64,000 nucleotides of DNA from a virus. Position numbers and translations under genes: made by a program. The notes beneath the pieces are model-generated. The model was not told where the DNA came from. It saw only the letters and a list, made by a program, of their open reading frames with translations, and made no database searches. Positions 48,051-48,176 of this stretch are shown in pieces. Each line of letters opens with the position of its first letter. The first letter of the stretch is position 1. The stretch lies in the IMG/VR virus record IMGVR_UViG_3300047311_000725; one strand, given 5' to 3'.

Positions 48051-48105
48051 CTTCTATGTTCTCCCTAAAGTGCTGACGTCCCAATTGTGTGAGACGCCCT
48101 TCAGG

Positions 48106-48113
48106 TCTAAATA
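48106..48113 (-). promoter_or_regulatory. CTATTTAGA motif copy 56 nt upstream of tail tube ATG
   Basis: caggtctaaatacc. Confidence 0.35.
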
Positions 48114-48176
48114 CCTGTTGACGCGAGTTTTCGGTCGGAATTTCGGGAAACGATTCGGAGTAGAAGAATAGGCAGG

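Follow-up and report, generated by a model that had tools for sequence, protein, structure and literature searches.

A candidate single-element promoter of virion genes in a large uncultured phage, similar to the T4 late promoter in architecture and different in sequence

Introduction

Late transcription in bacteriophage T4 relies on a promoter with one element, an 8-bp sequence (TATAAATA) at positions -13 to -6 without conservation at -35, which is read by the minimal sigma factor gp55 together with gp33 and the sliding clamp gp45 (PMC2988020). Within this element, gp55 puts A-12, A-9 and A-8 into pockets (PMC7892883). A one-element late promoter is already known from T4, and the CTATTTAGA-type signal described here is a new sequence variant. 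The middle and late promoters of the large Thermus phages phiYS40 and P23-45 are also of a -10 type without a -35 box, and many of the transcripts are leaderless.

We analysed a 64-kb stretch of DNA (the window; IMG/VR record IMGVR_UViG_3300047311_000725), for which a preliminary description had proposed that a short string recurring upstream of structural genes is a late promoter read by a phage-encoded sigma factor. Literature searches returned only primer noise for the motif string and nothing on the phage family.

Materials and Methods

The expected number of TATTTAGA matches was obtained from dinucleotide-preserving shuffles (n=100). Counts described as covering 83 kb refer to the window with its 10-kb flanks. 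The sequence examined for this genome amounts to ~94 kb of ~204 kb, including 10 kb seen through an 88% relative. Relatives were drawn from IMG/VR through the sheath protein. Distances from TAnTTA to the start codon were counted across all loci, for each ATG opening an ORF with 60 or more codons. For the sigma factor search, the T4 gp55 query was taken from NC_000866; it has tblastn matches in 2008 phage records. An HMM was built from T4-type gp55 sequences.

Results

A large phage with T4-type virion genes

The window has a G+C content of ~62% and all of its plausible genes lie on the minus strand. Contigs with identical proteins reach 204,678 bp, giving a phage of more than 200 kb, and the precomputed Pfam matches on these contigs include Portal_T4, Peptidase_S77, Gp23, gp13 and Terminase_6N as well as a ribosomal protein S21 gene, which lies between two of the motif sites described below. 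The T4-type genes of the genome comprise portal, prohead protease, Gp23 capsid, gp13, sheath and tube; the window also encodes Pol III alpha, a family A polymerase, ribonucleotide reductase, a DnaB-like helicase, RecA, thymidylate synthase, dCMP deaminase and a 2301-aa ORF. No similarity at the DNA level to any deposited phage was found. Among isolates, the closest are an uncultured 484-kb phage, Flavobacterium phage immuto, Microcystis phage Mel-JY01 and Rhodothermus phage RM378, with capsid or sheath identities of only 35-39%. In IMG/VR, matches to the capsid protein number more than 598. Judged by its sequence, the phage is a large, uncultured and distant member of the T4-core phages without a close cultured relative.

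A metagenome scan aimed at extending the genome yielded two 2-kb contigs only. The additional 10 kb from the 88% relative carry tail-fibre-like, primase-like and SbcCD-like genes and no sigma factor, and further relatives showed either unchanged synteny or, for a distant relative, a replication module without motif enrichment.

A strand-specific, intergenic motif close to start codons

The 8-mer TATTTAGA has six exact matches in the window against 0.08 expected, a number that none of the shuffles reached, and the 9-mer CTATTTAGA has four against 0.04. The matches at 616, 48106, 52997, 59080, 62192 and 63097 are all intergenic and all on the minus strand and, given that the genes are all on this strand, the motif is always found on the coding strand; it ends 20, 55, 57, 3, 34 and 16 nt, respectively, before an ATG. 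The recurrence of the string and its placement close upstream of minus-strand genes, as first described, are therefore real, with one position moved from 63098 to 63097. Equal frequency of the motif within ORFs or on both strands had been named in the preliminary description as evidence against the proposal; no copy of TATTTAGA was found within an ORF or on the other strand, so that the proposal stands on this point. The six sites are as follows.

616..624, minus strand: strong site CTATTTAGA, 20 nt before ATG 595 of a 158-aa ORF of unknown function
48106..48113, minus strand: strong site (G)TATTTAGA, 55 nt before the tail tube ATG 48050; kept in the related loci L001 and L002
52997..53005, minus strand: strong site CTATTTAGA, 57 nt before the tail sheath ATG 52939
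59080..59088, minus strand: strong site CTATTTAGA, 3 nt before ATG 59076 of a 102-aa post-capsid ORF without a Shine-Dalgarno sequence
62192..62199, minus strand: strong site (T)TATTTAGA, 34 nt before ATG 62157 of a 420-aa ORF; kept in L004, L005 and L022
63097..63105, minus strand: strong site CTATTTAGA, 16 nt before ATG 63080 of a 197-aa head-module ORF; kept in L022, L103 and L104

The tail tube and sheath assignments rest on PHROG matches (9e-30 and 1e-62). The 420-aa ORF directly precedes the Gp23-type major capsid gene, a position that suggests a scaffold. Written as TAWTTAGA, the strong form occurs in seven places, six of them in the virion module. The first description of the motif as lying upstream of structural genes is accurate in that the strong form is mainly found before virion genes; it does not extend to the site at 616, where the 158-aa ORF follows dCMP deaminase and is not evidently structural.

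Shorter strings behave in the same way. Across the 83 kb, the heptamers ATTTAGA (7/7) and TATTTAG (6/6) are exclusively intergenic; TATTTA is found seven times on the coding strand of this genome and never antisense. The window contains 17 copies of TANTTA against 5.0 expected, 13 of them on the minus strand. The degenerate form [AC]TAnTTA is present 12 times on the coding strand and three times antisense in the 83 kb, with every coding-strand copy 5-80 nt before a start codon. The weaker forms in the window, and one string that we judge to be outside the motif, are listed below.

45710..45716, minus strand: weaker variant CTACTTA, 34 nt before the baseplate-hub ATG 45675, downstream of the tRNA cluster with its terminator
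34658..34663, minus strand: weak candidate (T)TACTTA, 34 nt before ATG 34623
24222..24228, minus strand: weaker variant CTAGTTA(G), in the gap after the SSB gene, ~80 nt before ATG 24141
14431..14437, minus strand: weaker variant ATATTTA, 19 nt before ATG 14411 (MazG-like pyrophosphohydrolase)
13035..13041, minus strand: weaker variant CTACTTA, within the 3' end of the previous ORF, 48 nt before ATG 12986
1603..1609, minus strand: weaker variant CTACTTA, within the 3' end of the previous ORF, 21 nt before ATG 1581
25215..25222, minus strand: CATTTAGA, accompanied by TTTAGA at 25171-25176; outside the motif

CTACTTA also precedes the small-ORF/terminase/portal unit outside the window, and the weaker forms (CTACTTA, CTAGTTA, ATATTTA) precede some non-structural genes too. 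The last entry comprises the two strings near the SSB gene, at 25171 and 25215, that had been put forward as variants; they have only TTTAGA in common with the motif and lack the invariant TA. Neither one-mismatch variants (10 against 5.6 expected) nor WTTAGA (14 against 10.9) are enriched.

Conservation of the core across distant relatives

Comparison of the sheath-upstream region among relatives delimits the part of the motif that is under constraint. Relatives with 82-100% sheath identity keep CTATTTAGAC in place in diverged flanks, and those with 59-60% identity (G+C 43-59%) carry CTAATTAGAAC at the equivalent place in surroundings that are unalignable. The gap after the portal gene, just outside the window, reads CTAATTAGAC here and CTATTTAGAC in the 88% relative. 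Taken together, these comparisons indicate that the third base of the hexamer is free and that the others are constrained.

More widely, 34 of 37 distinct 110-nt sheath-upstream regions, from relatives with G+C contents of 36 to 68%, carry [AC]TAnTTA in coding-strand orientation, compared with five that carry its reverse complement, none of the first 110 coding nt and a mean of 4.7 (maximum 11) in shuffles. The tube gene follows the pattern seen at the sheath, with ATAGTTA or CTATTTA before it in distant relatives. While the exact 8-mer TATTTAGA is absent from 74 distant loci taken from the IMG/VR capsid matches (capsid ~42-61% identical, G+C 36-68%), the intergenic hexamers of these loci show strong strand bias for TATTTA (143 vs 30, in 60 loci), TAGTTA (57 vs 3) and TACTTA (57 vs 12), which are the most asymmetric once T-runs and Shine-Dalgarno words are set aside; no such bias is evident for TATAAT (39 vs 40) or TTGACA (16 vs 13). 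The base preceding the hexamer is A or C in the family loci. The sheath regions, the tube pattern and the hexamer bias lead us to regard the window motif as the local, extended strong form of a deeply conserved, family-wide element, (A/C)TAnTTA, as read from these alignments. The string originally described is thus real, and its definition requires revision: the conserved core is (A/C)TAnTTA, and the GA that follows it is confined to this subclade.

A palindromic operator was also considered, as TCTAATTAGA is palindromic in some relatives; this reading was rejected, since this genome does not keep the upstream arm and the motif is strictly one-sided in its orientation.

Similar signals could be seen in the cultured distant relatives. 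In the structural 50 kb of immuto, ATATTTAT occurs 14 times forward and once in reverse, at sites that precede terminase, post-capsid, sheath, tube and hub genes, and the structural part has a motif density only ~2x that of the rest. RM378, a 'far-T4' isolate whose capsid is 35% identical, has ATATTTA twice before the gene in the scaffold position. The motif there overlaps a TAnnTTTG-like string, which we take to be possibly the host's own -7 box, and its meaning in RM378 is therefore ambiguous. It is probable that the element occurs in Flavobacterium, Microcystis and Rhodothermus phages.

Promoter architecture and the predicted transcription start

Across 235 aligned sites there is no -35 signal, the profile being flat from -50 to -3 except for a trace of T-runs or terminators at -19 to -15, and the six window sites have nothing in common upstream. 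Three of them leave little space downstream: TATTTAGA-acc-ATG at 59080, TATTTAGA-caa-GGAG at 63097 and TATTTAGA-cct-GAGGAG at 616. As there is no room for another element at these sites, the motif itself must be the start-proximal one.

Counted from TAnTTA, ORF-opening ATGs are most frequent at 4, 5 and 6 nt (7, 13 and 8 sites, de-duplicated by exact 60-nt context only, so that some may share descent), with two to four sites at neighbouring distances and a flat reverse-complement control. Many relatives have an ATG without a Shine-Dalgarno sequence 4-6 nt (mode 5) after TAnTTA, and this spacing would place the transcription start at the sixth nt after the hexamer. All seven strong sites have a purine at this position, and C is depleted at the sixth and seventh nt in the family profile (0.08 and 0.05). 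The predicted +1 at 616 is a G that opens GAGGAG, and at 63097 GGAG starts at the predicted +1. The post-capsid gene is preceded by CTATTTA-N5-ATG here, by ATAGTTA-N4-ATG in L004 and by ATAGTTA-N5-ATG in L006, and its start at 59076 is confirmed by the L004 orthologue (MATPNLGIQ vs MATKNIGIQ). On the simplest reading of this spacing, the post-capsid mRNA would be leaderless, with the A of the ATG as its first base. The preliminary description had envisaged a -10-type element that needs only a short recognition sequence, which agrees with the missing -35 partner and with a spacing that would set the start 6 nt after TATTTA.

Terminators and hairpins surround several sites:

59100..59127, minus strand: intrinsic terminator that follows the major capsid gene and lies just before the site at 59080, giving the order terminator then promoter
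47509..47534, minus strand: intrinsic terminator after the tail tube gene, closing the short unit begun at 48106
48064..48105, minus strand: stable stem-loop at the start of the predicted tube mRNA leader (-20.2 kcal/mol, z = -4.9)
52953..52996, minus strand: stem-loop at the start of the predicted sheath mRNA leader (z = -2.6)

A hairpin of different sequence is predicted at the equivalent place of the sheath leader in relatives, where it is weak (z -0.2 to -1.4), and consensus folding of the sheath leaders gave no pairs, the alignment being too divergent. No motif was found before tRNA clusters, which consequently have no bearing on a transcriptional as opposed to a translational role.

A second promoter class for replication and metabolic genes

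The window contains four copies of TGNTATAAT against 0.04 expected, all on the minus strand:

47474..47482, minus strand: extended -10 promoter TGGTATAAT, representing the contrasting class
2801-2809, 11391-11399 and 16877-16885, minus strand: further extended -10 promoters

Three more copies are located in the downstream flank, and the class is almost always found before non-structural genes, among them genes of replication and nucleotide metabolism. At Pol III alpha (ATG 11384) and at a 403-aa ORF (ATG 2794), the arrangement is TATAAT-N6-ATG, the canonical sigma-70 geometry; across loci, the distance from TATAAT to ATG peaks at 6 nt, one nt more than for TAnTTA. While six of eight TATAAT promoters lie outside the virion module, six of seven strong motif sites lie inside it. 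The separate gene sets and spacings point to host-type extended -10 promoters serving replication and metabolism, and to a distinct element serving the virion genes.

A division of this kind would be expected if promoter specificity switched over time, and late timing of the motif-driven genes is plausible given which genes follow the motif. The motif is not established as a late-only signal, because its weak forms precede non-structural genes and its density in immuto differs just ~2x. Enrichment, conservation, the missing -35 signal, the start geometry and the existence of two classes make TATTTAGA a well-supported candidate promoter.

Search for the recognition factor

PHROGs and Pfam searches of essentially all window ORFs gave no match to a sigma factor, gp55 or an RNA polymerase, nor did PHROGs on 10 flank ORFs together with precomputed Pfam on the flanks detect a sigma factor, gp55 or a polymerase. 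The gp55 HMM found nothing among six-frame ORFs of the window, the flanks, the 10 kb of the 88% relative and ~100 family loci, and hhalign of 39 small window ORFs and seven upstream ORF families gave probabilities of at most 2.3%. None of the nearest isolates was among the tblastn gp55 matches listed. General ORF scans turned up no match to gp33 or a gp45-type clamp. The phage-encoded sigma factor postulated in the preliminary description was thus not found: no gp55-like or sigma-70-family protein was detected in the window, the flanks or ~100 related loci (~94 of ~204 kb of this genome).

Two ORFs were evaluated as candidates. The 197-aa ORF (62487-63080) has the position of the RM378 sigma factor and a weak BLAST match; it was ruled out as a sigma factor, its family alignment having a variable middle, a basic conserved tail and no sigma features, with no Pfam match. 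In relatives, a 195-aa ORF that precedes the SbcCD-like gene matches neither gp55 nor sigma factors and is not a sigma factor. By eye only, this ORF shows a RuvC-like D/E/D/D motif pattern.

RM378 encodes its own ECF-like sigma factor, Rm378p144, in the head module (Sigma70_r2, 4e-14). This phage resembles ours as a distant relative with ATATTTA, and differs in that a homologue of Rm378p144 is absent from the window and the related loci. A weak match of immuto gp126 to the RM378 sigma factor (E ~0.01), without Pfam support, is considered unreliable.

Discussion

Comparison with described promoters

The likeness to the T4 late promoter lies in a single AT-rich element at the -10 position without a -35 box, in a predicted start at the sixth nt after the last A of the element, and in its location before virion genes (six of seven strong sites precede head or tail genes). 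ATAnTTA agrees with ATAAATA at five of seven positions (-12, -11, -10, -7 and -6). The resemblance pointed out in the preliminary description therefore holds for the core, which aligns with ATAAATA in the register set by the start, and not for the alignment given there. There are also clear differences: position -8 is T rather than A, -9 is free, this subclade has C at -12 and adds G-5/A-4, and the replicative polymerases are Pol III alpha and Pol A rather than gp43. TATAAATA, ATAAATA and TAAATA are each absent from the coding strand of the 83 kb. Given C at -12, a free -9 and T at -8, a T4-like specificity cannot be assumed. In terms of sequence evidence, the motif is T4-like in its architecture and geometry and departs from the T4 sequence definition.

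The sigma-70 extended -10 promoters of this genome share with the motif the lack of a -35 box, a location ~10 bp before the start and a link to leaderless mRNAs, whereas TATTTAGA differs in its consensus, has no TG and ends its hexamer in A rather than T; the extended -10 class lies one nt further from leaderless ATGs, and the two gene sets are complementary. The Thermus phages phiYS40 and P23-45 are comparable as large, host-RNA-polymerase-dependent phages with minimal -10-type promoters and leaderless mRNAs, but their promoters resemble the host -10 or extended -10, that is the TGnTATAAT class and not TATTTAGA, and the phages are unrelated. Bacteroidetes promoters have TAnnTTTG at -7 and TTTG at -33; the window sites read TATTTAGA and contain no TTTG.

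Who reads the motif?

We suggest, as the probable explanation, that CTATTTAGA is the core of a single-element, -35-free promoter of the abundant virion genes, presumably read by a phage-encoded factor. The hexamer TATTTA would occupy about -11 to -6, followed by G and A at -5 and -4, and transcription would start at the sixth nt after the hexamer, in the register of the T4 late promoter. The phage factor would presumably redirect the host RNA polymerase core and read the -10-like element alone, as T4 gp55 does, and the TGnTATAAT promoters of early and middle genes would be left to the primary sigma of the host. Some transcripts would begin at, or a few nt before, the ribosome-binding signal, and at least one would begin at the AUG itself. 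The wide G+C range and the apparent occurrence of the element in Flavobacterium, Microcystis and Rhodothermus phages argue for recognition encoded by the phage rather than a peculiarity of one host.

A bolder form of this proposal is possible, and we advance it tentatively: a phage protein of a kind not yet recognised, with no detectable homology to gp55 or sigma-70, could retarget diverse host polymerases to (A/C)TAnTTA throughout the family, so that many virion mRNAs start at or next to the AUG, possibly with participation of the phage S21.

Alternatively, the host holoenzyme, with its primary or an alternative sigma factor, might read the motif as a non-canonical -10 element without any phage factor. 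Neither a phage sigma nor gp55 was found in the DNA examined, the hexamer opens with TA like a -10 box, and host-type TGnTATAAT promoters are clearly used elsewhere in the phage. We nevertheless find this unlikely: sigma-A requires T at the last hexamer position, where the motif has A; a TG extension and a -35 box are both missing; and in the same data the spacing to leaderless ATGs is one nt shorter than for TATAAT. Furthermore, the element is kept over G+C contents of 36-68%, probably in phages whose hosts have different primary promoters, and in the family's structural modules no strand bias is seen for TATAAT or TTGACA.

Less likely still is transcription by a phage RNA polymerase, single-subunit or phiKZ-type multisubunit, encoded in the part of the genome beyond the ~94 kb. 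The motif is short, near the predicted start and independent of host G+C, as such an enzyme would allow, and over half of the ~204-kb genome lies outside the DNA examined. Against it, no such gene was found in the 94 kb or in any Pfam-annotated neighbourhood, and 150 of the 160 kb of immuto contain no annotated polymerase except a doubtful 100-aa 'subunit N' without Pfam support. Promoters of single-subunit polymerases usually extend over ~20 bp, and only 7-9 bp are conserved here.

We give equally little weight to a role at the RNA level, either as a leader element that enhances translation, possibly linked to S21, or as an RNase processing site. This would be in keeping with a motif that is confined to the coding strand and located shortly before start codons, with the S21 gene between two sites and with the capacity of AU-rich leaders to enhance translation. 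The distance to the ATG, however, varies from 3 to 57 nt, with hairpins and ordinary Shine-Dalgarno sequences intervening at sheath and tube; the 4-6 nt peak, the purine at the sixth nt and the scarcity of C point to a start site rather than a ribosome contact; sites come after terminators, where a new transcript must begin; and five fixed bases exceed the specificity of known S1-type enhancers. Finally, chance can be rejected: although intergenic DNA is richer in AT than coding DNA and chance copies of the 7-mer are frequent in immuto and other AT-rich relatives, six matches against 0.08 expected, TATTTA on the coding strand only (7 vs 0) and retention at orthologous sites across deep divergence are not explained by composition.

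Implications for large uncultured phages

The interest of this element stems mainly from its sharing across a very large family of uncultured phages and from the fact that the protein reading it was not found in the ~94 kb examined; it raises the concrete question of which protein reads (A/C)TAnTTA. Since three distant relatives in culture, immuto, Mel-JY01 and RM378, seem to have the element, the question can be addressed at the bench. For these widespread and almost wholly uncultured large phages, (A/C)TAnTTA with a start 6 nt downstream provides a usable promoter model, which helps to define operons, gene starts (leaderless ones included) and expression classes in metagenomic phage genomes. 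Our findings suggest that the one-element late-promoter strategy of T4 reaches well beyond phages with a recognisable gp55, with its specificity changed.

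A second promoter class and the signals at gene starts

Besides the main motif, (A/C)TAnTTA, a second conserved promoter class is evident, defined by the extended -10 box TG(G/A)TATAAT and followed in most cases by non-structural genes.

Extended -10 boxes
2801-2809, window, minus strand
11391-11399, window, minus strand
16877-16885, window, minus strand
47474-47482, window, minus strand
7787, 11428 and 19396, locus L016

The copy at 47474 lies within the virion module of head and tail genes, directly after the tube terminator, and the next ORF is of ~165-180 aa. The ATG often stands exactly 6 nt past the TATAAT hexamer, as for Pol III alpha and a 403-aa ORF, and this spacing implies that early/middle mRNAs from the TG(G/A)TATAAT class would be leaderless.

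The Shine-Dalgarno word TAGGAGA, frequently in the form TTTAGGAGA, occurs five times in the 83 kb comprising the window and its 10-kb flanks, each time in intergenic DNA, and is followed by highly expressed genes, among them those for capsid and sheath.

TAGGAGA
60875, 58702, 52956, 50579 and 3502, window, minus strand

The main motif itself is found at unusual starts in two relatives.

Main motif at unusual starts
L103:4986-5000, close relative, CTACTTA-N5-GTG before a RuvC-like 195-aa gene
L106:5249-5258, distant relative, ATACTTA abutting ATG directly (N0)

The GTG of the RuvC-like gene is possibly a leaderless start. The N0 arrangement is at odds with the promoter geometry and may reflect chance or a mis-called start.

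With respect to the protein that would read the main motif, gp126 of Flavobacterium phage immuto (L117:24474-24992), a small hypothetical protein, is weakly similar (E ~0.01) to region 2 (EHxIEDMxxxTF) of the ECF-like sigma factor of Rhodothermus phage RM378. Because gp126 has no Pfam support for this similarity, it could be due to chance, or it could provide a lead to that factor.

Unusual genes of the replication, tRNA and head regions

Replication and tRNA-like genes (window, minus strand)
7857-11384, bacterial-type Pol III alpha (DnaE)
25820-32725, 2301-aa ORF between replication genes
35267-36946, family A polymerase
45795-46029, tRNA-like gene cluster, anticodon loops abnormal

Despite the T4-type structural genes, DnaE and a family A polymerase stand in place of the gp43-type polymerase of T4. 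The 2301-aa ORF matches only a cytidylyltransferase-like domain and, weakly, an aminoglycoside-phosphotransferase-like domain.

Two genes of the cluster are tRNA-Ile(AAT) according to ARAGORN, with a 9-nt loop, AGTAATGAC, when read by eye, and one, typed "undetermined", has a loop of 6 nt, TTTTAA. Relative L025 (20564-21105) also carries tRNA-like genes of this odd class, with loops CGTAATGAA and CGTAATGAC. At ~46035-46095 the window may contain a truncated tRNA-like element.

Head-module genes (window, minus strand)
62230-62478, phage-encoded ribosomal protein S21 (Pfam PF01165)
62487-63080, 197-aa protein (alignment A2)

The S21 gene lies between two main-motif sites and is kept in relatives L103, L104 and L113. 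In another relative, L114, the T4-type portal gene (11291-15598) encodes 1435 aa, with two intein-splicing/HNH matches (Pfam PF14890, PF13392). The 197-aa protein belongs to a family of 53 homologues with no Pfam match. A conserved N-terminal helix is followed in this family by the block DFSxPLG...NFGPYT, and the tail, GFKKLKxKLAHKKGV...ALAASIGRKKYGAKGMAKKAAAGRK, is highly conserved and strongly basic, whereas the middle varies. The protein may sit inside the virion or bind DNA.
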